Source: an uncultured Actinomycetes bacterium
GTDB lineage: Bacteria > Actinomycetota > UBA4738 > HRBIN12
DNA: 64,000 nt
Reading direction: 5' to 3'
NCBI GenBank assembly: GCA_963704725.1
Contig: OY969934.1
Coordinates: 672,001-736,000 of the forward strand
Each line of letters starts with the position of its first letter. Position 1 is the first letter of the stretch. This document shows positions 4,439 to 61,633 of the stretch, one piece after another. The notes under the pieces were generated by a model. The model worked only from the letters and a program-made list of their open reading frames with translations, was not told the DNA's origin and did no database searches. A program made the position numbers and the translations under genes.

Positions 4439-7400
4439 TCAGCTCACCGGCGCGAGCTCGGCCAGCCGTCGCCGCGCGAGATCGGCGGACACGGTGTTGC
4501 CCTTCGAAGCGAACGACGCCTCGGCGTCGCGCAGCGCGGTGCGCGCCGCCTCCAGCTTCCCTGCCGCCTGGCACACCTCGCTGAGATCCATCAGCGCGTT
4601 CCCCACGTCCTGCGTGTTGTCGGTTCCCTCGATGAGACGGACCGCCTCCCGGGCAAGGGTCTCGGCTTCCTCCAGTCGTCCTCGCCGCGCAAGCACCTTG
4701 CCCCGCACCGAGCGCCACGCGGACTGGGAAGCGACGTCTTGATCGGCGGCGATCGACTCACTCTCGATCGTGAGGGTCTCGGCCTCGTCGTCCCGGCCCT
4801 GCCGGTACAGGGCCTCGGCCAGCAGGGCGGCCGTGGTGGGGAGGTAGTCGCGCTCGCCCATCGCCCGCAGCACCTCCAGGTCGCGGCGCAGCTCGGCCTC
4901 CGCGGCGAGCGGGTCGCCGGCGAGCATCTCGATCGCGCCCGAGTCGATCGAGGTGAGCGCGGCGTGGAATCGCCACCCGAGCTCCTCGAGCATCGCTCGG
5001 CTCGTGCGATACCCCTCCCTGGCCTCGTCGAATCGACCCTGCATCGCGGTGAGGTGGGCGAGCACGCACAGGAGGATCGCCTCGGTCCGGCGATCGGTAC
5101 GGGCCTTGGCGAGGAGCTCTCGGCAGCGCGCCTCCGCCGTGTCGACGGGCGTCGGGCCGTACAGGACGCAGGATCCGATCGACGGCAGGAAGCGCGCCTC
5201 CAGCGTGGGATCGCCGGCTCGGCGGGCGTGCTCGATCATCCGGTCGGCCGCCTGCTCGGCCGCCCCGTAGTGCCCCCTCGTGAAATTGAGCTGCAGCAGC
5301 AGGCGCCACGCGCGGGCCAGGCCCTCGTCGTCGCCGAGCACCTCGAGCAGTGGGATCGCGCGCTCCACCTCCTCGAGCACGATCGCCTCGGTCGCCTCGG
5401 GGTCCGACGTGAACCGGAGGCGGAGGTGCGACAGGCGCGCACGCATCTCGACACGCCGGTCGCCGAGACCCGCCGCGAGCCGGGTCGCGTCCGAGAGCGC
5501 GGTCTCGGCGGCCGCGAACTCGCCGAGCTCGATGAGCGCGTCACCGGCCAGCAGGCCGAGGCCGGGGCGCTCCGGATCGTCCGAGGACCGCAACCAGGTG
5601 GCGCGCTGCAGGAGCGCCGCCGCCGCCGGCATGTCCCCCCGAGCGAGGGCCCGCCGCCCCGCCGACGCCAGGTACCGGGAGCCGCGGTCGCCGAGCTCGC
5701 GGACGTGCGCGTCCACGGGGCCGAGCTGGACGAGGATCACGTACGCGGCCTCGAGGTGGTAGCCGCGGATCTCCTCGTACTCGGTGGCGCGCTCGGCGGC
5801 GACCCGCTCCAGCCAGTCGACGAACCGCTCGTGCAGCTCAGCCCGGGTGCGCTTGAGCAGGCCGTGATACGCCGCGTCGCGGATCAGGATGTGGACGAAC
5901 CGGTGCGCCTCGTGACCGGCCAGCCGCGTGGTGGCGTCGGGGCGGACGAGATCCTTGCCGGCGAGCGACTCGAGGCTCGCCTCGACGGTCGGGGCGAGGC
6001 CCTCCGGCACGAGCTCCTCGACGGCGGCGCGGAAGAAGACCTGCCCGATCACGGATCCGCGCTCGAGCGCGGGGCGCTCGGCGGGGCTCAGGCGGTCGAG
6101 CCGGGCCGCCAGCAGGGCCGAGATCGTGGGCGGGATCGCCACGTCGCCGAGGTCCGACGTCGCCACCCACGAGCCGCCGCCGTCCTGTTGGCGCAGGACG
6201 CCGTCGTCGATCATCATCGAGAGCATCTGCTCGACGAACAGCGGGTTGCCCTCTGCCGCGGCCGTGATGCGGGAGCGCACCGACTGGTCCAGAGAGGAAC
6301 CGAGCAGGTTCTCGAGCACGAGCGAGCTCTCGGCCTCGGTGAGCGGCTCGAGCGTCACGGCCCGCACGTCGTCGGTCTCCTCACCCCACTCGGGGTGCTC
6401 CTCCAGCAGCTCCTTGCGCGAGGAGCACACGAGCAGGATCGGCGCCTCGGCCGCGTCGGCCAGGTAGCGAAGGAGATCGAGGAACGTCCCCTCGGCCCAG
6501 TGGATGTCGTCGACCATCACGACGAGCGGCCGCTCGAACGCCAGCGCCTCGAGCAGCGTCCGCGCGGCCGCGAACAGCTCGGCCACGGGGAACGCGGCGT
6601 CGTTCAGACCGATCGCGGCTCCCAGGCGTTCGGCCACGGGGCCGTTCCCGGCCAGGGTGGCGAGCTTGGCCACCGCGACCTCGCGCGGGTCGTCCTCGTC
6701 GATCGCTGCGGCGTCGCGGATCACCTCGGCCAGCGGCCAGAACGTGATGCCGTCCCCGTACGGGAGACACCGTCCGTGAAGGGGCCGGACCGTTCCGTCC
6801 GCCCGGGCTAGCAGCTCGCGCAGGAGCCGGGACTTGCCGACCCCCGCCGGGCCCAGGACCGTGACGACCTGCGCGCGGCGCAGCTCGATCGCGCGGTCCA
6901 GCGCCTGGGTGAGGACGGCGAGCTCGTGCTCTCGGCCGACCATCGGCGCGTCGAGCCGGCGGGCGACCCCTTCGTCCAGGCGCACCGAGAGGATGCGATA
7001 GGCGGCGACTCGCTCCGCCTTCCCCTTGAGCTCGAGCGGCTCGACGGCCTCGGCCTCGACGGCGTCGCGGACGAGTCGGTAGGTCGGCTCGCCGATCAGG
7101 ACCTCGTTCGTGGGCGCCGCCTGCTCGAGCCGGGCCGCCGTGTTGACGGTGTCGCCCGTGACGAGCCGCTGTCCCGACGACACATCGCCGGCGACGACCT
7201 CTCCGGTGTTCACGCCGGTGCGGTTCTCCAGATGCACCCCCCACCGCGATCCGAGGCGCTCGTTGAGCGCGACGAGCGCCTGCTGCATCTCGACGGCGGC
7301 CCGGACGGCGCGCAGCGCATCGTCCTCGTGCAGCCGGGGGAGACCGAAGACGGCCATGATCGCGTCCCCGATGTACTTCTCGACGCTGCCGCCGTGACGG

Positions 7401-7627
7401 ACGAGGACGCCGCGCATCTCGTTGAAGTACTCGTTCAGCACCTCGCGAAGCGACTCGGTGTCGAGCGCCTCGCCCAGGCTGGTCGAGCCCTTCAGGTCGC
7501 AGAACACGATCGAGACGGTCTTGCGGACCTCCTGTGCCACGGTCTCCGGGACGAGCTGCGCCCCGCAGAACCCGCAGAGACGGAAGCGATCGGGGTTCTC
7601 CTCGCCGCACGCGGGGCACAGCTGCAT
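4439..7627 (-). CDS. Adenylate/guanylate cyclase - STAND AAA ATPase - TPR protein with N-terminal zinc ribbon
   Basis: CPACG..CGFCG; FCDLKGST, KYIGD, VNTAAR cyclase motifs; Walker A GPAGVGKS; DDIHWA; GNPLF. Confidence 0.9.
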   Translation of the reverse strand: MQLCPACGEENPDRFRLCGFCGAQLVPETVAQEVRKTVSIVFCDLKGSTSLGEALDTESLREVLNEYFNEMRGVLVRHGGSVEKYIGDAIMAVFGLPRLHEDDALRAVRAAVEMQQALVALNERLGSRWGVHLENRTGVNTGEVVAGDVSSGQRLVTGDTVNTAARLEQAAPTNEVLIGEPTYRLVRDAVEAEAVEPLELKGKAERVAAYRILSVRLDEGVARRLDAPMVGREHELAVLTQALDRAIELRRAQVVTVLGPAGVGKSRLLRELLARADGTVRPLHGRCLPYGDGITFWPLAEVIRDAAAIDEDDPREVAVAKLATLAGNGPVAERLGAAIGLNDAAFPVAELFAAARTLLEALAFERPLVVMVDDIHWAEGTFLDLLRYLADAAEAPILLVCSSRKELLEEHPEWGEETDDVRAVTLEPLTEAESSLVLENLLGSSLDQSVRSRITAAAEGNPLFVEQMLSMMIDDGVLRQQDGGGSWVATSDLGDVAIPPTISALLAARLDRLSPAERPALERGSVIGQVFFRAAVEELVPEGLAPTVEASLESLAGKDLVRPDATTRLAGHEAHRFVHILIRDAAYHGLLKRTRAELHERFVDWLERVAAERATEYEEIRGYHLEAAYVILVQLGPVDAHVRELGDRGSRYLASAGRRALARGDMPAAAALLQRATWLRSSDDPERPGLGLLAGDALIELGEFAAAETALSDATRLAAGLGDRRVEMRARLSHLRLRFTSDPEATEAIVLEEVERAIPLLEVLGDDEGLARAWRLLLQLNFTRGHYGAAEQAADRMIEHARRAGDPTLEARFLPSIGSCVLYGPTPVDTAEARCRELLAKARTDRRTEAILLCVLAHLTAMQGRFDEAREGYRTSRAMLEELGWRFHAALTSIDSGAIEMLAGDPLAAEAELRRDLEVLRAMGERDYLPTTAALLAEALYRQGRDDEAETLTIESESIAADQDVASQSAWRSVRGKVLARRGRLEEAETLAREAVRLIEGTDNTQDVGNALMDLSEVCQAAGKLEAARTALRDAEASFASKGNTVSADLARRRLAELAPVS

Positions 7628-54166: not shown

Positions 54167-54203
54167 CGCTCGTTGGGGCGACATCTGATAATCTGATTCC
54201 GTG

Positions 54204-54455
54204 ATGAAGGACATCTCGGCGACGGACGCCGCTCGGAACTTCTCCGACCTGCTCGACTCGGTCGAACACGGGCACGAGAGCTTCGTCGTGACGAGGGGTG
54301 GGCACCCCGTGGCTCGGATCGTCCCCGCGGAGGCGGCGTCGGGAAGGGCCGTGAAGGACCTGCTCGATCGCCATGCGCCGGATCCCGGATGGTCCGCGGA
54401 TCTGGCGGAGCTGCGGTCCCTGCTGGTCACCGAGGAGCGCGACTGGACCGCCTGA
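54204..54455 (+). CDS. Phd/YefM antitoxin
   Basis: ISATDAARNFSDLLD.V....VVTRGGHPVARI; ATCTGAT direct repeat upstream. Confidence 0.9.
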   Translation: MKDISATDAARNFSDLLDSVEHGHESFVVTRGGHPVARIVPAEAASGRAVKDLLDRHAPDPGWSADLAELRSLLVTEERDWTA

Positions 54456-54838
54456 TCCTCGACACGACCGTGCTCGTGTCCGCCGAGCGCCGTCGCCGCC
54501 GGATCCAGCAGGCGATCGGCGACGACGACGACGTGGCCATCGCCGCGATCACCGCCGCCGAGCTCCTGGTGGGGGTCGAGCTCGCCGACCGTCGGCACCG
54601 GTCGCCGCGCGAGGCCTTCGTCGGCGAGCTTCTCGAAACGCTGACCGTGGAGGACTACTCGCTCGCCACCGCCCGAGCCCATGCGCGCCTGCTCGCGTTC
54701 GCGCGCTCGTCCGGGCGACCGCGGGGCGCCCACGACTTGATGATCGCCGCAGCGGCGGTCGCCTCAGACCGTATCCTCGTGACCGCGGACGGCCGCGGAT
54801 TCGCGGAGCTCCCCGGGGTCGAGGTCCGCGTGGTCTGA
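54443..54838 (+). CDS. vapC: PIN-domain toxin (VapC), probable CTG start
   Basis: LILDTT, TAAEL..G, HDLMIAA.A, VTAD; SD GAGGAG 5 nt before CTG 54443. Confidence 0.88.
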   Translation: MDRLILDTTVLVSAERRRRRIQQAIGDDDDVAIAAITAAELLVGVELADRRHRSPREAFVGELLETLTVEDYSLATARAHARLLAFARSSGRPRGAHDLMIAAAAVASDRILVTADGRGFAELPGVEVRVV

Positions 54839-54857
54839 AGCGAGGGAATGGGTCGGG

Positions 54858-55592
54858 CTATCGCCAGTCGACCGTGACGACCTCGACCGGCTCGGAGATG
54901 CCGCGGACCTGGACCTCGCGCGGCTCCGACGTCTCGTAGCGCGATCCCGCCGCCGTCGCCTTGCTCGCCACGATCTCGCCCCCGGCCGCGAGCGCGGCGA
55001 TCCGGGAGGCCTCGTGGACGCCCTTGCCGGTGAAGTTCTTGCCCACCTGCGTCGCCCCCGCCGCGTGCACGCCGACTCTCACGTTCGGCGCGAACCCGGC
55101 CTTGGCACGGTGATCGGCCAGCCGCCGCTGGATCGCCACGGCGCACGCCAGCGCCTCGTCCGGTGAGTCGAACCCGACGAAGAAGCCGTCGCCCGTCCCG
55201 ACGATCTCCTCGCCGCGGTGGTCGGTGAACAACCCACGGAGCGTCTCGTCGTGCCAGCGGAGGACGTTCTGCCAGGCCTCGTCGCCGAGCGCCTCGACCA
55301 GGTTCGTCGAGCGCTCGATGTCGGTGAACATGAACGTCTTCTGGACCCGGCGCGGCGCCTCCTTGCCGCGGAGCTGCCACGGCAGCAGGTCCGCGACCTC
55401 CTCGACCTCGACCGCGGCCGTGGGACACGCGAGCGCCGCCGTGCGCAGCAGCTCCTCGTCCACGCTCGCCGCGTCGGCCACGTCGGCCTTGGCGAAGTCA
55501 CCCTCCAGCCAGTCGAACGCCGTGGGTGCGATCGTGATGCAGTTGCCGGCCCCGATGCACCGATGCCGGTCGATCCGGGCCCGCAACGCCAT
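54858..55592 (-). CDS. Ferredoxin - class III nucleotide cyclase fusion
   Basis: CIGAGNC...CP ferredoxin, then FTDIERST, GDG, RVGVH, VHEASR; ATG overlaps upstream TGA. Confidence 0.85.
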   Translation of the reverse strand: MALRARIDRHRCIGAGNCITIAPTAFDWLEGDFAKADVADAASVDEELLRTAALACPTAAVEVEEVADLLPWQLRGKEAPRRVQKTFMFTDIERSTNLVEALGDEAWQNVLRWHDETLRGLFTDHRGEEIVGTGDGFFVGFDSPDEALACAVAIQRRLADHRAKAGFAPNVRVGVHAAGATQVGKNFTGKGVHEASRIAALAAGGEIVASKATAAGSRYETSEPREVQVRGISEPVEVVTVDWR

Positions 55593-58500
55593 CAGATCAC
55601 CTCCCGGAACGCGTACGCCGTGGCCTCGGCTCGCGACGGCGTGCCGAGCCTCGCGTACAGCTCGGCCAGCCGGCTCGCCACCTCGGCCTCGCCGAGGCCG
55701 AGCTCCTCGGCGATCTCTCGGTCGGTGCGGCCCGCAACGAGCCCGCCCAGCAGCGCGACCTCCTGTTCGTCCAGCTCGGCCGGCCCGATGCCCTGGACCC
55801 CGTCCGCCGCGATGGGGCCGACCAGGCGGGCCAGCGCGCCTCCCGTCGAGCCCCGGAGCCACCGTGCCCGGACCTCGGGGTCGACCGTGCGCTGCGCGAT
55901 CAGCACGAGCGTCAGGCGCAGGTAGTCGACGACGCCCGCGCGCTCCTCCTCGGTCCCGCCCTCGACGATGGCCCGCGCGGCCGGGAGCACGATCTCGAGC
56001 GACACGTCCTCGTGCGCCGAATCCTGGAGGCTCTGGACCGCCGAGCGGGCCGCCTCCACCGCCTGCTCGACGCGGCCCCGCGCCAGCTCCACCATGGCCA
56101 TCGCCGCGTCGGCCTGGGCCGGCCACGGCGGGTGGCCCGGGAGCTGCGACGCGAGCGAGCGCACCTCGAGCGCCGCCGTCTCGGCCGCGCCGAGGAGCTC
56201 CTCGTCGCCGCCGGCCTCGCCGAGGCGGGCCGCCTCCACCGCCAGCCGGCCGAGGGCCTCGCACCGCGCCGCGGTCTGGCCTTGCGCGGCGGCGAGCTCG
56301 ATCGCCCGCTCGAAGTGCCGGCGCATCTCGTTGGCGTCGCCGGCCGCGGCGTGCACGAGCGCCCGCCACAGCTCGAGCTGTCGGGTGCGGAACGCCGTCG
56401 GCGCGTCCGACGCGGCGGCCTCGGCGCGGGCGAGCCATTCGCGGGCGCCCACGACGTCGTCCAGATCCAACCACGCCATCGCCGTCCCGCCGGCCGAGAG
56501 GAACTCGAAGCCCTTGTCGCCGATCACCTTGGCCTGGCGGTACGCCTCCTCGCCGCGCGAGACGGCGAGGTCGGGGATGACCTTGGCCCGCGCGAACACG
56601 TGCGTCCCGAAGACCATCTGCCACTCGGAGATCGCGCGCTCGCTGCCCTTCGTGAACGACTTGATGTTCGTCCACAGCCGGCGGATCTCCTCGATGTGGT
56701 GGCCGGCGCCCGAGCCCAGGTGGATGTCGGCGCCCCAGCTCAGGACGCCCATCGCGATGATCACCGTCATGGCGCCCTGGCGATCGTCGAGGCGCTCGTA
56801 GATCTCGAGCGCCTCGGGGAGCAGGCGCGAGGCCTCCTCGTAGAGGTGCGCCACCGGCGTCTGGCGAACGACCTCCGCCATGGGCATGGACGTCGTCATG
56901 CGCAGGAACTCCTGGTGGGCGCCGTTCATGATCTCCCCGACGAACCAGGCCCGGAACAAGCCGAAGTCGACGACGGCGATCTCGCGGAGCGAGGCGGCCA
57001 GCGCGCGGTCGTCGCCGAGCTCCCGGGCCAGGTCGGCGGCGTGGCGGAAGGCCTCGGCCGCGCCCTCGAGGTCTGCCTCCGTGAACGAGGGCGAGAACAT
57101 CTCGCCGAGCTCGGCGCCCATGAGCGCCTGCCCGAGCTCCAGCGTGGCCGCGAGCTCGAGCCGGCGGTCGCCGCTCGCCGCCGCATCGCCCTGGACCTGG
57201 CGAGCGAGCGTGGCCGACGCCTCGTGCTCCTCGGACTGGCGCAGGGCGGCCGTGCGGCGCAGGCGGACGTCGCGACCGGTGGAGCTCGTGTCGCCGAGCG
57301 CCTCGGCCAGCGCCTCGATCTCGGCGAGGCCCTCAAGTCGGTCGCCGGTGCGGTGGAGCATCTCGAGGGCGTCGTCGCGCGCGATGAGGAGCTGGAGGCG
57401 CTCCTGGGCGCTCGTTGCCGCCGGGAGCGCGAGGTCCACGACGCGCAGGACCTCCTCGGGGGCGCTCGCGCGCAGCGAGTTCTCCGCCGCCTGCAGCGAG
57501 AACCGGACGCAGATCGTCGCGTCGCCCGCCGCCTTCGCGTGGTGAGCGAGGAGCGGGAGGCTCTCGGGCGCCGGCGCGCCGGTCATGAGCAGCTGGACGA
57601 TCGCCTCGTGCACGGCCCGCCGCTTCGAAGGCGAGAGCGAGCCCGTCGCGAACTCGCGCACCTGGTCGTGGGCGAACGAGTAGTCGGCGGCCTCGTCCTT
57701 CGGGAGCTCGAGGAGCAGCCCGGCGGCGACGGCCGGCGCGAGCGCCTCGGCCAGCTCGTCGGTGGACGGTTTCCGGTCGCCCAACCGGACCTCGACCTCC
57801 TCGAGGTCCTTCAGGCTGAACCGGCGCCCGAGGATCGCGGCGAGGGCGAGCGCGCCCATCGTCTCGTCGGGCAGGCGCGCGGCGCGGCGGGAGATGAGCG
57901 TTCGCACCGCGGCGGGGACGAGCTTCTCGGCGCCCTTCGTGAGCGTCCAGACGTCGCCGACGCGCTGGGCCATGCCGGCCTCGCGGTAGGTCTGGGCCAG
58001 CTCGGCCAGGATGAACGGGACGCCCTCGGATTGGCCGTGCATCGTGTTCGCCATCCGCGGGTCGACGGTCCCGCCGAGCACCTCGGCCAGGAAGGTGGCG
58101 CTCTCCGGGTGGCTGAACCTCGACAGTCGGAACCGCCGGACGACGCCGAACCGCTCCATGTCGGCGAGGAGCGTCACGGCCTCGGTGACGAACGCGAGCT
58201 CCTCGGGCCGGATCGTGGCCATGAGCAGGATCGGGCTCGTCGTGACGGCGCGGACGACGTAGCGCATGGCCCGGAGGCTGTCGTCGTCGGCCCACTGGAG
58301 GTCGTCGACGAAGATCGCGAGCGGCTTCGCGGCGGCCAGGTCGCGCAGGGCCACGGCGGCGAGGTCGAACGTCCGCAGGAGCTTCGCGTCCGGCGGGAGG
58401 CCGGCGAGGGAGGGGTCGTCCCGGCCGGACAGTGCGTCGACGGCGGCCGCGAGCGCCGGGACCGACGAGTCGGCGGCGGCCGCGGCTCCCAGGATCGAGC

Positions 58501-58780
58501 GGGCGAGGAGGAACGGGCCGCGGAGCTCCTCGTCGGCGGCGACGGAGACGACGGTGAACCCGAGCGCGCTCGCCTGCTCGGCGGCGTCGACCATCAGCCG
58601 GGTCTTGCCGATGCCGGGCTCGCCCTCGAGCGTGAGGGCGGTGAGGCGGCCGGCGGCGGCGGAGCGCAGCTCCTGGCCGATCGCGGCGAGCTCGGTGGCG
58701 CGGCCCACGACCTCACGGGTGACGCGGCGGACCTGGAGCTGCAGCGGGGCGAAAGGGATCGCGGTGCCCGGTCGGCTCAT
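55592..58780 (-). CDS. STAND AAA ATPase with helical repeats and C-terminal LuxR-like HTH
   Basis: GEPGIGKT, DDLQWAD, GVPF, F.HD; LVAGRTDREIAEELGL. Confidence 0.88.
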   Translation of the reverse strand: MSRPGTAIPFAPLQLQVRRVTREVVGRATELAAIGQELRSAAAGRLTALTLEGEPGIGKTRLMVDAAEQASALGFTVVSVAADEELRGPFLLARSILGAAAAADSSVPALAAAVDALSGRDDPSLAGLPPDAKLLRTFDLAAVALRDLAAAKPLAIFVDDLQWADDDSLRAMRYVVRAVTTSPILLMATIRPEELAFVTEAVTLLADMERFGVVRRFRLSRFSHPESATFLAEVLGGTVDPRMANTMHGQSEGVPFILAELAQTYREAGMAQRVGDVWTLTKGAEKLVPAAVRTLISRRAARLPDETMGALALAAILGRRFSLKDLEEVEVRLGDRKPSTDELAEALAPAVAAGLLLELPKDEAADYSFAHDQVREFATGSLSPSKRRAVHEAIVQLLMTGAPAPESLPLLAHHAKAAGDATICVRFSLQAAENSLRASAPEEVLRVVDLALPAATSAQERLQLLIARDDALEMLHRTGDRLEGLAEIEALAEALGDTSSTGRDVRLRRTAALRQSEEHEASATLARQVQGDAAASGDRRLELAATLELGQALMGAELGEMFSPSFTEADLEGAAEAFRHAADLARELGDDRALAASLREIAVVDFGLFRAWFVGEIMNGAHQEFLRMTTSMPMAEVVRQTPVAHLYEEASRLLPEALEIYERLDDRQGAMTVIIAMGVLSWGADIHLGSGAGHHIEEIRRLWTNIKSFTKGSERAISEWQMVFGTHVFARAKVIPDLAVSRGEEAYRQAKVIGDKGFEFLSAGGTAMAWLDLDDVVGAREWLARAEAAASDAPTAFRTRQLELWRALVHAAAGDANEMRRHFERAIELAAAQGQTAARCEALGRLAVEAARLGEAGGDEELLGAAETAALEVRSLASQLPGHPPWPAQADAAMAMVELARGRVEQAVEAARSAVQSLQDSAHEDVSLEIVLPAARAIVEGGTEEERAGVVDYLRLTLVLIAQRTVDPEVRARWLRGSTGGALARLVGPIAADGVQGIGPAELDEQEVALLGGLVAGRTDREIAEELGLGEAEVASRLAELYARLGTPSRAEATAYAFREVI

Positions 58781-58850
58781 CGACCAATGAGGCTACGACA
58801 GGGCGGCATCACGCGCGCCGGAGGGCCGGCGGATCCACACGAGGGATTCG

Positions 58851-61040
58851 CTAGCCGAGCTCCCACGCCCGCCCAGCGCCGATGGGGGCCGGGGCGGGGG
58901 TGATGCGGAACGACGTGCCGTCCACCTCGATCACCCCGAAGTCCCCGGCGAAGTGCAGGCGGAGCTTCGGCGCGCACGTGCACGCCGAGAATCCGCAGCA
59001 CGGGCCCGAGCGGCAGTCCACCCGCTCCATCTCGGCGTCGATCGTGGCGCCGTGCTCGACGGTCGAGCCGACCAGGGCGGTGACCCGGCCGGTGGCGGGC
59101 CAGATCGACGGCGGGACGATCGTCCCGGCGTCGGCCACGATGCCCGTCTCGAACGTCAGCCACAGCGAGTCGTCCTCGAGGTTGGCCTCGTCGTTGGCCA
59201 CCTCGCTCGCCTCGTAGTGGAGGCGGTCCCGGCGCTCGTGGTCGTGCAGGTCGGTGATGGCGTGGAACGGCGTACCCTCCGGCGCCACCGGCTCGAGCTC
59301 GTCGGGGTCCGAGCCGAGCTGGTGTCGCAGGTCGTAGTCGATGAAGATCCCGACCTTGCCCTCGACCCAGCCCGCCGCCGTGAACTCGACGGGGCACTCC
59401 GGCGGTCCCTGGTACGTGCACTCGACATCGGCGTTCGCGGCGATCCGGCTGGACGCGTGGCCGGTGTAGCGGTTCACGTGCCCCGGGCACATGCTCTCGA
59501 GATCGATCTTCACGACGTTGGCCACGACCCACGCCGCATGGGCGGCCACCTCCGGCGGCTCCTCGTGCGAGCGGAGCTGCCGGTACGGTGCGACGTCCTC
59601 GGGCATGCGGGGCTCGCCGAGGCCCTGCATCCACGCCAGGTCCTCGGCCGGGCCGCTGCGCACCGCGGCCTCGACGCGCCCGCCCAGGCCGTGGGGTTCG
59701 AGCGCGAGCGAGGGGATCCGCAGCCGCGCGGACGGGGCGTCGGGGGTCACGCCCTCCTGTCGCCCCCGCGCCGCCAGCTCGCGCTCGGACACCGTGAGGC
59801 TCACGCTCACCGTGTAGACGCAGCACTCCCGCCCCCGGGCCGGGCGGAGCAGCCGGCGGCCGGCGTCGGTCCGGTAGTAGACGGCCCAGTCGCACGCCGC
59901 GTACTCGGGCTCCGGCGGGACCCCGCCCACCGGCGGGGTGGGTTCCTCGGGGGGCGGCCTCCCGCGCTCGCGGGTCGGACCGGAGGCGGGAGGCGGCGGC
60001 GTCCGCTCGCGCGTGCGGCCCCACAGCAGGAAGCCACCCAGGAGCGCCGCGACGATGCCGGCGGCGACCAGCATCCAGTCGAGGAGGTCCCCGTCCTCCT
60101 GGGCCACCTCGCCGACGCCGGGCACGAACGAGGCACGTGGCGAGGGCGAGGTCGACGCGGCCGCCGAGGGCGACGGCGTGGGCGACTCGCTGGGCGAGGG
60201 CTCCTCCTCGACCGCCTGCCGGAGCAGGGGCGTGAAGACGTCGACGGGCGGCGGCAGCGTCCCGCGCGGGTTCACGCCCGTCACCGAGTCGGCCGCGCCC
60301 GGGTCCTCGGCGTTCGCTTGGTGGAAGGTGTGGGCGTCGAACCCGATCACCGTGCCCCGGAGCGGGAACTCGGCGGCCGGGATCACGAACCACGCCAGCT
60401 CGCCCTGCCGGAGCACGAGGGCGTCCGTGTGGAACTCCTGGAAGGGACCCCCGGCGACCTGGAGGTAGACGACCGAGTCGCCGTCGGCGGTGAGGTCGAG
60501 CCGCCACGCCTTGTTCGTGTCGACGAACGGCGAGGCCGGGCGGGGGTCCTGGGCCGTGGGGAAGTCGTCGTCGTTCGCGAGCACGGCCAGCGTGAGCACC
60601 TCCTGGCCGGAGACCGCGGGCTCGGCGGCCAGGCGCATCCCCACGACGACCGTCCCACTCCGGAAGGGGCGGGTCGAGGTCTCGTACCGGGGGCACGACA
60701 CCTCCGGCCGCTCGCAGTCCAGCGCTCCGCCCGGCGAGAACAGGGCGTCGAACGACTCGCCGTCGATCGCGATCGCGAACTGGGTCTCCTGGACGAGATC
60801 GGCGAACGCCGGGACCGACCCGGGGGCTCCGCCTTCGAGGGTGTAGAGGTCGCCGGCCGCGTCGGGGACGTCTACCGTTTGCGGCGCCCCGTCCCAGGCG
60901 AACGCGCCGGCCGGATCCCCGACGAGCGCGTTCAGCGCGTCGACGAAGGCCGCGGACAGATCGACGGTCTCCTGCCCGGACGCGGGCGCCGCCGACACCA
61001 CGAGCACCGCGGCGACGAGCAGGACCCGGGCCGCCCTCAC
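58851..61040 (-). CDS. Type I membrane protein with Cys-rich C-terminal domain
   Basis: GTGA overlap start; signal peptide, PS linker, TM WMLVAAGIVAALLGGFLLW, then many Cys. Confidence 0.65.
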   Translation of the reverse strand: MRAARVLLVAAVLVVSAAPASGQETVDLSAAFVDALNALVGDPAGAFAWDGAPQTVDVPDAAGDLYTLEGGAPGSVPAFADLVQETQFAIAIDGESFDALFSPGGALDCERPEVSCPRYETSTRPFRSGTVVVGMRLAAEPAVSGQEVLTLAVLANDDDFPTAQDPRPASPFVDTNKAWRLDLTADGDSVVYLQVAGGPFQEFHTDALVLRQGELAWFVIPAAEFPLRGTVIGFDAHTFHQANAEDPGAADSVTGVNPRGTLPPPVDVFTPLLRQAVEEEPSPSESPTPSPSAAASTSPSPRASFVPGVGEVAQEDGDLLDWMLVAAGIVAALLGGFLLWGRTRERTPPPPASGPTRERGRPPPEEPTPPVGGVPPEPEYAACDWAVYYRTDAGRRLLRPARGRECCVYTVSVSLTVSERELAARGRQEGVTPDAPSARLRIPSLALEPHGLGGRVEAAVRSGPAEDLAWMQGLGEPRMPEDVAPYRQLRSHEEPPEVAAHAAWVVANVVKIDLESMCPGHVNRYTGHASSRIAANADVECTYQGPPECPVEFTAAGWVEGKVGIFIDYDLRHQLGSDPDELEPVAPEGTPFHAITDLHDHERRDRLHYEASEVANDEANLEDDSLWLTFETGIVADAGTIVPPSIWPATGRVTALVGSTVEHGATIDAEMERVDCRSGPCCGFSACTCAPKLRLHFAGDFGVIEVDGTSFRITPAPAPIGAGRAWELG

Positions 61041-61633
61041 GGCGCCCCCGCCACCGGGGTCCCGCAGTCGGTGAGCCAGCGGTACCGCCCGTCCTGGAGC
61101 ACGACGTGGACGTCGGTCTCGACGAACGTCTCGCCGTCCTCGGTGAACCGCACCCGGACGGTGGTCGCGCCGTGGACGCGCCGGCGGACGTCGTCGGTCT
61201 CGTACACGTAGGAGCCGTCGCCCTGCACGGCGAGGACCTCGACCGCGTAGTCGGGCACGTCCAGGGCGCCCAGGGACGCCCGGCATTGCTCTTCGCCGTA
61301 CCGGTCGAGCACGAACGGATGGAGCCGGGGGAGCAGGAACCGGACGTCCCCATCGGCGAAGGCGCTCCCGAGCGCGGCGAAGAACTCCTCCGGCGTCTCC
61401 GCGGCCGGCTCCTCCGTGGGCTCGGCGGTCGGGGACGGTGACGGCTCGGCGGTCGGGGACGGTGACGGCTCGGCGGTCGGGGACGGGCTCGCGGCGGTGG
61501 TCGGGGAGGTGGGGGCGCCGCCCGCGGCCGAGGAAGTGCCGCCACCGCCGCCCAGCACCCCGATCAGGCCGACGACGATCCCTCCGAGGCCCGCGGCGAG
61601 CAGGACCACGCCCACCCCCCGCCGAGCCCCCAC
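61037..61633 (-). CDS. Membrane-anchored/secreted protein with PSPTAE linker
   Basis: SD GGAGG before GTG 61633; N-terminal hydrophobic segment; C-terminal W.TDCG. Confidence 0.65.
   Translation of the reverse strand: MGARRGVGVVLLAAGLGGIVVGLIGVLGGGGGTSSAAGGAPTSPTTAASPSPTAEPSPSPTAEPSPSPTAEPTEEPAAETPEEFFAALGSAFADGDVRFLLPRLHPFVLDRYGEEQCRASLGALDVPDYAVEVLAVQGDGSYVYETDDVRRRVHGATTVRVRFTEDGETFVETDVHVVLQDGRYRWLTDCGTPVAGAP
61419..61486. repeat. 24-bp coding tandem repeat (~2.8 copies)
   Basis: ggctcggcggtcggggacggtgac encodes the PSPTAEPS linker on the minus strand. Confidence 0.85.

Follow-up and report, generated by a model that had tools for sequence, protein, structure and literature searches.

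The locus and its gene junction

The window analysed here, a stretch of 64,000 nucleotides (nt) from contig OY969934.1 of an uncultured Actinomycetes bacterium (assembly GCA_963704725.1, forward-strand positions 672,001 to 736,000), carries on its minus strand two overlapping genes that are the subject of this report. The upstream gene encodes a STAND (signal transduction ATPase with numerous domains) regulator with a C-terminal LuxR helix-turn-helix (HTH), and the downstream gene a small protein in which a single-cluster ferredoxin domain precedes a class III nucleotide cyclase (Table 1). At the junction the minus strand reads ...GGGAGGTGATCTGATGGCG..., where the TGA of the open reading frame (ORF) of 1062 amino acids (aa) overlaps the ATG of the 244-aa ORF, and a Shine-Dalgarno-like hexamer, GGGAGG, lies 7 nt ahead of that ATG.

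The start of the small gene is unannotated and had been proposed, as overlapping the STAND stop, in a preliminary description made from the sequence alone. It is accepted here because the best 120 relatives have a similar length (226-245 aa) and their alignments begin at residue 1-3, in agreement with the sequence of the junction itself. A longer in-frame ORF opening with GTG at 56675 was also considered and discarded; it crosses the STAND gene in another frame and is ruled out by the lengths of the relatives.

A scan of 54600-59100 returned no promoter-like site and one terminator-like site, located within a coding region, against 0.7 expected. Among 61 regions upstream of STAND orthologues no LuxR box was found and no conserved operator emerged, the commonest 9-mer being present in 8 of them and resembling a -10 element.

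Table 1. Features of the STAND-LuxR and ferredoxin-cyclase genes, in window positions
Feature	Position	Strand	Details and basis
STAND-LuxR regulator gene	55592..58780	-	1062 aa; stop TGA 55594-55592; ORF and Pfam
AAA_16 P-loop NTPase domain	58223..58714	-	residues 23-186; Pfam E 1.4e-18
Walker A GEPGIGKT	58601-58624	-	Walker B region DDLQWAD
Alpha-helical solenoid sensor	55811..57583	-	residues 400-990; AlphaFold2 (AF2) secondary structure
Predicted ferredoxin-contact residues	56006-57121	-	within STAND residues 554-925; complex prediction
LuxR/GerE helix-turn-helix	55610..55771	-	residues 1004-1057; Pfam GerE 25.0 bits, cut-off 23.5
Junction	55590..55605	-	GGGAGG 55605-55600, TGA 55594-55592, overlapping ATG 55592-55590; read from sequence
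Ferredoxin-cyclase gene	54858..55592	-	244 aa; stop 54860-54858; translation, Pfam, 203 orthologues
Fer4_13 single-cluster ferredoxin domain	55407..55574	-	residues 7-62; Pfam Fer4_13 and Fer4_15
Ferredoxin cluster motif	C12-x2-A15-x2-C18 at 55539-55559; C56-P57 at 55422-55427	-	
Linker	55353..55397	-	residues 66-80; motif L69-L70-P71-W72-Q73-L74-R75
Class III cyclase catalytic domain	54900..55337	-	Pfam residues 86-231; PDB matches, AF2, Foldseek
Metal Asp residues	D91 55320-55322; D135 55188-55190	-	alignment to Ma1120 and Rv1900c
Base-selecting pair	V131 55200-55202; N186 55035-55037	-	V131 at Lys position (VGTGD), N186 at Asp position
Transition-state Asn position and Arg	H193 55014-55016; R197 55002-55004	-	alignment to Ma1120 and Rv1900c

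The ferredoxin domain of the small subunit

Both halves of the small protein score above their Pfam cut-offs, Fer4_13 with E 4.5e-8 (34.1 bits, cut-off 24.5) and Guanylate_cyc (PF00211) with E 6.5e-8 (32.8 bits, cut-off 21.9), so that the 244-aa architecture of ferredoxin plus class III cyclase first read from the sequence holds. The cluster motif, spelled out, is C12-I-G-A15-G-N-C18...C56-P57. Residue conservation was counted in an alignment of 203 orthologues, with gaps in 4-5 of them at the columns concerned; C12 and C18 are each kept in 198 and C56 and P57 in 199 each, and no ungapped row lacks any of the three Cys residues or the Pro. Position 15 is occupied by Ala in 194 and by Ser in 4 of 198 sequences, and by Cys in none. 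In the motif definitions of PMC6237146, CXXA/GXXC(X)nCP marks a [3Fe-4S] ferredoxin and CXXCXXC(X)nCP a [4Fe-4S] one. Because the motif of the small subunit matches the former, its ferredoxin domain most likely carries a [3Fe-4S] cluster, a soundly based assignment that agrees with the earlier reading of Ala at the second Cys position. Matches of this part of the protein in the Protein Data Bank (PDB) are the ferredoxins of T. maritima, D. africanus and P. furiosus, and the domain is the sole Fer4_13 match in the 3.45-Mb genome.

The AF2 monomer model, built from 59 sequences, gave the ferredoxin part a predicted local distance difference test score (pLDDT) of 47-70 and linker residues 66-78 values below 50; the ferredoxin and the cyclase on either side of this low-confidence linker make no confident contact with each other. 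Despite the low model confidence, the linker motif L69-R75 (LLPWQLR) is near-invariant, its residues being kept in 189-198 of about 199 orthologues.

The cyclase domain and its substrate-selecting residues

The closest PDB sequences to the cyclase are Ma1120 of M. avium (E 2e-24), the orthologue of the pseudogene Rv1120c, and Rv1900c/LipJ of M. tuberculosis (E 4e-18). The same two proteins are its best matches by fold (template modelling (TM) score 0.84-0.93); the AF2 model of the domain, with a pLDDT of about 90, superposes on Ma1120 with a TM score of 0.89-0.93 and a root-mean-square deviation of 1.4-2.1 Å by Foldseek. The domain is thus a class III cyclase of the Rv1900c/Ma1120-like subgroup. 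It has in common with both proteins the FTDIxxST and GDGF motifs, the two metal-binding Asp residues, the Arg and the absence of Asn from the transition-state position, and LipJ resembles the small subunit further in that its cyclase is C-terminal to another module. Neither Ma1120 nor Rv1900c has a ferredoxin domain or a STAND partner.

Alignment with these two proteins confirms that both metal-binding Asp residues and the catalytic Arg are retained, as the preliminary description had stated: D91, D135 and R197 are present in 199 orthologues each, that is, in every ungapped row, and H193 in 196. The base-selecting positions are atypical, again as described earlier. Position 131 is Val in 159, Ser in 17, Ala in 9 and Thr in 9 orthologues, and Lys in none; at position 186, Asn (174) prevails over Asp (19). 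According to PMC4215837, the Ma1120 equivalents of V131, N186, H193 and R197 are K101, D157, A164 and R168, while the PDB alignment gives Rv1900c Asn, Asp, His and Arg at these four positions. The base-selecting pair is accordingly Lys101/Asp157 in Ma1120, Asn/Asp in Rv1900c and Val131/Asn186 in the protein described here.

A survey of the subgroup was made with the best 150 representatives (P0124-P0273) of a protein library clustered at 50% identity. His occupies the transition-state Asn position in 130 of them, as it does in Rv1900c, and active Ma1120 has Ala there, its A164N substitution abolishing activity according to PMC4215837. Since Ma1120 works with Ala, and His is so common among the representatives, the His of the small subunit is a family trait and the transition-state Asn not a defining residue of these cyclases. 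The earlier observation that His replaces this Asn is therefore correct, but the change is not special to this protein. The base-selecting pair, on the other hand, varies across the subgroup while the metal Asp residues and the Arg stay constant: Lys/Asp and Asp/Gly occur in 28 representatives each, Asn/Asp in 11, Asp/Ala in 9 and Val/Asn in 4, two of the last being ferredoxin-cyclases. We know of no characterised member of the Asp/Gly type. V131/N186 fits neither the adenylyl (Lys/Asp) nor the guanylyl (Glu/Cys, Ser, Gly...) class. The catalytic apparatus is thus strongly constrained and the substrate-naming residues are non-canonical, such that the product is not readable from the sequence. 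This variability marks the Rv1900c/Ma1120-like subgroup as a hunting ground for unusual cyclic nucleotides.

The 3.45-Mb genome holds 22 cyclase-domain matches and 13 matches to domains that bind cyclic nucleoside monophosphates (cNMP). One paralogue, encoded at about 3.116 Mb (L002 1498..3444, minus strand; G000:C1), is a 648-aa TPR-cyclase with a cyclase domain 54% identical to that of the small subunit.

The STAND-LuxR protein

The large subunit is a MalT/LAL-type STAND regulator composed of a P-loop NTPase switch, a solenoid sensor and a LuxR HTH. Its AAA_16 and GerE matches both lie above the Pfam cut-offs. Across 38 STAND orthologues G53, E54, P55, G56, G58, K59, D159, Q162, W163 and D165 are invariant, and a profile built from these orthologues matches the DNA-binding domains of DevR, NarL, VraR and GerE in the PDB. 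The AF2 model obtained with the same 38 sequences (mean pLDDT 86.4) places the NTPase first, followed by a helical and winged-helix region that ends near residue 400, an unbroken alpha-solenoid from 400 to 990, a flexible segment (990-1000) and the HTH (1005-1060). Foldseek matches of this model include the STAND-TPR protein 6mfv, Avs3 (8dgc) and Avs4 bound to phage proteins, MalT (8bob), Apaf-1 and CED-4.

Distribution of the pair

A word-indexed protein search, in which 8000 candidates were scored, returned at least 2378 proteins at E <= 0.001. The best 120 relatives share 76-90% identity with the query, and for 117 of them both PF00211 and a Fer4 family are annotated; their database names, all automatic, are only 'class 3 adenylate cyclase', 'ferredoxin' and '4Fe-4S domain-containing protein'. 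The library clustered at 50% identity yielded 33,538 matches at E <= 0.001 and 328 at E <= 1e-30. The ferredoxin motif is present in only 9 of its best 150 representatives, and these 9, P0124 excepted, look like fragments, fusions or frame-shifted calls. The ferredoxin-cyclases thus form one tight orthologous group. P0128 had been taken as a candidate 'catalytically dead' clade and was rejected, its middle part being out of frame between well-matching ends in the manner of a sequencing or assembly artefact.

Gene neighbourhoods were compared in the best 80 of 121 stretches encoding a relative, all from species-representative genomes. The small protein in these loci is 64-95% identical to the query. 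Their sources are uncultured Actinomycetota (Gaiellaceae, Nitriliruptorales and Solirubrobacterales among them) and Chloroflexota (Limnocylindria, Dehalococcoidia and Anaerolineaceae), besides one bin each with the labels Dormiibacterota, Eisenbacteria and Planctomycetaceae; among uncultured soil bacteria of the two main phyla the family is abundant. In a tree of 62 STAND partners the rows cluster mostly by phylum, with 5 label changes for Actinomycetota and 3 for Chloroflexota, where shuffled labels need about 16-17. Binning errors may account for the Dormiibacterota and Planctomycetaceae labels, because both rows adjoin near-identical Actinomycetota rows in that tree.

The pairing of the two genes is obligate in this set. 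A STAND-LuxR orthologue of 39-84% identity stands directly upstream on the same strand in all 80 loci, some of the STAND copies being cut by contig ends, and the conservation on which the preliminary description had made its proposal depend is thereby borne out. The distance from stop to start is -4 to +26 nt in 70 of the 77 loci in which both gene ends could be placed, and in the remaining 7 the start rule took an in-frame start farther upstream. A second count was made over 61 genomes of the order to which the window belongs, which overlap the 80-locus set, so that the two counts are not independent. The small protein is matched at E <= 1e-60 in 34 of these genomes, and 32 of the matches span the ferredoxin part; every one of the 32 ferredoxin-cyclase genomes also has the STAND orthologue, and in 31 the two genes adjoin on a single contig, whereas in G020 the pair lies on two contigs and the STAND gene is cut at a contig end. 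Three unpublished genomes (G011, G034 and G041) are among these 32 pair carriers, and a fourth, G049, has a cyclase-only match. A STAND orthologue without its partner was seen in only 3 genomes, namely as a contig-end fragment in G024 and as 41-42% relatives in G040 and G046.

No third gene is conserved with the pair: among 441 flanking ORFs the largest family occurs in 9 of the 80 loci, and each of the other window ORFs beyond 44000 is matched in at most one. The pair behaves as a self-contained two-gene unit. In G009 (C37:29070-32755), a genome with 9% contamination, the pair seems to decay; the STAND match is split with an internal TGA and the ferredoxin-cyclase match covers residues 3-167 only.

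The module is patchy within its own order. Inside the genus the STAND orthologue was found in 8 of 13 other genomes and not in G004, which is 96% complete. Such patchiness and the unconserved flanks would fit an accessory anti-phage cassette, with a STAND sensor and a cyclase effector comparable to Avs or Pycsar, and so would the resemblance of the STAND fold to Avs3 and Avs4, whose sensors grip proteins, and weak matches of the cyclase to PycC (best E 2e-4, 18.7 bits). Such a role is nevertheless very improbable. The PycC similarity is at the level of a shared fold, and none of the PADLOC models is hit by the STAND protein, which ends in a LuxR HTH as its output domain; the pair has no effector gene beside it, and 64-95% identity across two phyla is high for a defence gene. 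Searches of viral contigs gave no orthologue and 2 weak partial matches, and searches of plasmids likewise gave no orthologue, none of the 12 matches covering 80% of the query and all of them being cyclase-only hits from rhizobia and Ruegeria.

Fused relatives and relatives without a ferredoxin

The preliminary description regarded the small subunit as the split-off form of a cyclase otherwise fused to a STAND protein, and this is substantiated by relatives in which the parts share one chain. Fusions of the order AAA_16...GerE-cyclase with all three Pfam families are P0133, P0200, P0213 and P0262; in P0180 and P0263, AAA_16 and GerE are detected by Pfam and the cyclase was seen only in the phmmer match. 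Rare full fusions that also include the ferredoxin exist as singletons, namely P0277 (1313 aa, AAA_16...Fer4_13-cyclase) and P0275 (GerE-Fer4_13-cyclase), some of which may be sequencing errors because the stop and the start of the pair stand so close. The STAND parts of the fused relatives resemble that of the window only in the NTPase region (25-31%) and are without its solenoid motifs. Other proteins that end in the same cyclase subgroup include BTAD-AAA-TPR-cyclase, Protoglobin-cyclase (P0158) and FHA-FtsK-cyclase (P0148) arrangements, and a TPR-cyclase architecture of about 650 aa recurs very often in the database relatives.

Of the STAND relatives that have no ferredoxin partner, the nearest is encoded in G040 (L091 2754..6437, minus strand; G040:C4). 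This 1227-aa protein is a single-chain cyclase-STAND-LuxR with an N-terminal cyclase and without a ferredoxin; its cyclase residues are of the Val/Asn/His/Arg type, and its STAND part shares 42% identity with the STAND protein of the window over the full length.

Predicted docking of the ferredoxin into the STAND solenoid

A complex prediction of the small protein with the STAND protein had been suggested in the preliminary description and gave a positive outcome. STAND residues 400-1062 and the whole small subunit were modelled 1:1 in three runs alongside three controls. The interaction prediction score from aligned errors (ipSAE) was 0.85, 0.84 and 0.85 in the three runs, while the best of the controls reached 0.01. 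The score mark used is attained by 116 of 157 solved complexes and by 2 of 215 mismatched pairs, figures that are a rough guide here as custom alignments were used. The three runs have at least 79% of their contacts in common, with a partner pLDDT of at least 78.

In the predicted complex the small subunit contributes only its ferredoxin domain to the interface, through residues 9-17, 19-35, 39-40, 43-48, 51 and 54-59, among which are both cluster-binding loops (9-17 and 54-59). On the STAND side the contacts line the concave inner face of the solenoid (554-568, 610-618, 679-703, 721-732, 761, 795-798, 833-838, 880-885 and 921-925). Several of the contact residues are conserved among the 38 STAND orthologues, including G725 in 38, R700 in 37, Q721, V728 and R798 in 36 each, P796 in 35 and H883 in 33, and further conserved contacts are Y/F724, T795, A837, L880-P881-G882, E924 and D925. 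The complex model supports binding of the ferredoxin domain to the STAND protein; to our knowledge no complex of a ferredoxin domain in a STAND solenoid has been solved. The ferredoxin-less G040 protein keeps 9 of 19 strongly conserved predicted contacts, compared with 123 of 164 positions elsewhere in the solenoid (Fisher p 0.016), with G725, H883 and the nearby C840 among the changed positions; this loss in a single lineage would fit the docking model.

A fourth cluster ligand donated by the STAND protein, H727 or C840, was considered and is not supported, as neither residue is in the contact list. C840 is kept in 37 of the 38 STAND orthologues and is Leu in the G040 relative. The cluster corner opened by Ala15 faces the predicted interface, and a STAND residue or a small thiol could cap the cluster there, an arrangement to which the contact list lends no direct support.

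A proposed redox-responsive two-subunit signalling module

Together, the pairing of the genes, the fused relatives and the docking model suggest, with a probability of roughly one half, that the two genes encode a single two-subunit signalling module in which the state of the Fe-S domain sets the STAND switch, with LuxR-dependent transcription and a cyclic nucleotide as outputs. Since the complex model docks the ferredoxin in the STAND solenoid, the STAND protein may be the target or the reader of the Fe-S domain, and on this point the earlier proposal, taken as a gating of the cyclase within one chain, needs changing.

Briefly, the state of the Fe-S domain (presence or loss of the cluster, its redox state, or a modification by O2 or NO) would alter the seating or the occupancy of the ferredoxin in the sensor, and control would run from there to the NTPase switch and to oligomerisation of the STAND protein. 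Oligomers would promote LuxR-dependent transcription and allow the tethered cyclase domains to meet. Class III cyclases are active only as dimers, and for this reason STAND oligomerisation could switch the cyclase on. A cyclic nucleotide would then be formed, its base preference being left open by Val131/Asn186 in place of Lys/Asp. That the sensor might read the Fe-S state, or that docking might depend on it, is suggested by the cluster loops in the interface together with the strict [3Fe-4S] motif.

Several points weigh against this two-subunit module. The docking is one prediction, made with one STAND construct that starts after the N-terminal 399 residues and at 1:1 stoichiometry only. Mutual information between the subunits (with average product correction; 62 paired sequences), a weak test because the sequences are few and closely related, placed no interface pair among the top 50 and 5 among the top 200, where 2.85 are expected. 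The STAND interface is hardly more conserved than the remaining solenoid (0.71 versus 0.67), and the conservation on the ferredoxin surface is not specific, its motif (C...AP..F) being mostly general to this ferredoxin family. The near-invariant LLPWQLR linker lies outside the predicted interface with STAND 400-1062, so that the docking model leaves it unaccounted for; candidate contacts of the linker are the N-terminal half of STAND and the cyclase dimer. Finally, translational coupling of the small gene to the STAND gene is plausible from their overlap, but because the small gene has its own GGGAGG site, strict coupling is not required.

An unlikely alternative is that the Fe-S domain gates the cyclase in its own chain or homodimer, and that the STAND-LuxR protein is merely co-expressed and acts downstream, for example as a cyclic-nucleotide receptor, without any contact to the ferredoxin. 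An N-terminal sensor regulating a C-terminal class III cyclase is the usual design, with Protoglobin, TPR, BTAD and FHA modules preceding the cyclase in this very subgroup; the 13 cNMP-binding matches in the genome make a diffusible signal plausible, and the conserved gene pairing is compatible with such an arrangement too. It is opposed by the complex prediction, where the ferredoxin sits in the STAND solenoid and the score of 0.85 compares with at most 0.01 in the controls, by the want of a confident ferredoxin-cyclase contact across the low-confidence linker of the monomer model, and by domain searches that found no cNMP-binding family in the STAND protein.

Alternatively, the ferredoxin may be a structural docking handle that replaces a covalent link, its cluster being constitutive and the signal, a small molecule or a protein, being sensed elsewhere on the solenoid. 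The docking model is silent on sensing; the fused relatives without a ferredoxin still carry a cyclase on a STAND-LuxR protein, and the G040 protein fuses the same Val/Asn/His type of cyclase N-terminally to the closest STAND relative. However, the presence of both cluster loops in the interface would make docking likely to be cluster-dependent, the strict [3Fe-4S] motif with Cys never at position 15 in 198 sequences suggests that the type of cluster matters, and a plain tether would need no metal centre. A purely structural role is accordingly considered improbable as well.

A more specific form of the two-subunit module is tentative, and we hold it to be doubtful. Here the large subunit would be a bacterial NLR-like (STAND) transcription factor with an Fe-S protein domain as its ligand; the solenoid would close round the [3Fe-4S] ferredoxin of its partner and sense the integrity and the oxidation state of its cluster, much in the way that Apaf-1 responds to cytochrome c. 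Binding would turn on LuxR-controlled genes and bring cyclases together to make a cyclic nucleotide with a base set by Val/Asn, and maybe not adenine.

If the docking model is right, this would be the first bacterial STAND protein with a metalloprotein domain as ligand, and the pair would offer a clean two-protein system for the study of a [3Fe-4S] cluster as a signal. Induced proximity might then also explain the switching of STAND-attached cyclases, including those of the mycobacterial Rv0386 type. In the uncultured soil Actinomycetota and Chloroflexota that carry the family, few regulators of redox and iron responses are known.

Comparison with known systems

The combination of a class III cyclase, a STAND-type ATPase and a LuxR HTH is shared with proteins of the M. 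tuberculosis complex of the Rv0386 type, which in the cyclase census PMC3466318 are listed as 'CHD + LuxR' (CHD, cyclase homology domain) and of which Rv0386 is reported with an alternative substrate-binding mode. The G040 relative has the same single-chain order. In contrast to the Rv0386 type, the cyclase of the window is the product of a separate downstream gene, carries a ferredoxin and is predicted to be attached non-covalently. The word 'ferredoxin' is absent (0 occurrences) from PMC3466318.

With MalT and other LAL regulators the large subunit has in common the order of NTPase, helical arm, solenoid sensor and LuxR HTH, in line with its Foldseek match to 8bob. MalT itself is under the control of binding proteins, the title of 8bob referring to negative regulation of the maltose system. 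Unlike in MalT, the ligand proposed here is an Fe-S domain in the sensor groove rather than a sugar, and the partner has an enzymatic output.

A ferredoxin N-terminal to a class III cyclase has been described in PMC4821796 for class IIIb membrane adenylyl cyclases, in which a six-transmembrane (6TM) anchor of the haem-b type and a ferredoxin stand before the catalytic domain in 30 proteobacterial sequences, such as R. palustris Q132R4. That arrangement likewise hints at a redox input. Those enzymes differ in being alpha-/beta-proteobacterial membrane proteins with a cytochrome-b-like anchor. The small subunit is soluble, belongs to another cyclase subgroup, comes from Actinomycetota and Chloroflexota and has a STAND-LuxR partner; it is without a membrane segment and begins 6 residues before its ferredoxin domain, which leaves no six-helix anchor.

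Recognition of a whole protein by a repeat sensor is reminiscent of Apaf-1 with cytochrome c and of Avs3 and Avs4 with phage proteins, an analogy only and one drawn partly from general knowledge. Cytochrome c on Apaf-1 is a small redox metalloprotein, as the ferredoxin proposed as ligand would be, and the analogy is one of principle. Apaf-1 and the Avs proteins differ in having no LuxR output and no cyclase, in their WD40 or other repeats and in their biology.

Class III cyclases, STAND regulators and Fe-S sensors have each been well studied, and the three-way module is undescribed in the literature searched. No description of a soluble ferredoxin-cyclase or of its pairing with a STAND-LuxR protein was found there, the search having covered main texts, with subscription journals mostly outside it. 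The parts and the general theme are already known, both the cyclase with a STAND-LuxR protein and the sensor domain with a cyclase; not previously known are the presence of an Fe-S domain, the separation into two genes and a ferredoxin predicted to dock in the solenoid.

Neighbouring genes in the window

An 811-aa ORF (58851..61286, minus strand) immediately precedes the STAND gene on its strand; it contains a hydrophobic segment, has no Pfam match and is not conserved next to the pair in the 80 loci. On the other side, a Phd/YefM antitoxin gene (54201..54455, plus strand; E 1.4e-11) and a PIN-domain toxin gene (54389..54838, plus strand; E 3e-10) make up a VapBC-like pair, which converges on the ferredoxin-cyclase gene with 19 nt between the gene ends and stands beside the module in only 1 of the 80 loci (L026). 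Elsewhere in the window a 1062-aa protein (4439..7627, minus strand), without a LuxR domain, combines DUF7577, Guanylate_cyc, AAA_16 and TPR/MalT-like repeats in one chain, and the cyclase-STAND fusion that the preliminary description had placed there is thus present. Its cyclase domain is among the 22 matches counted in the genome.

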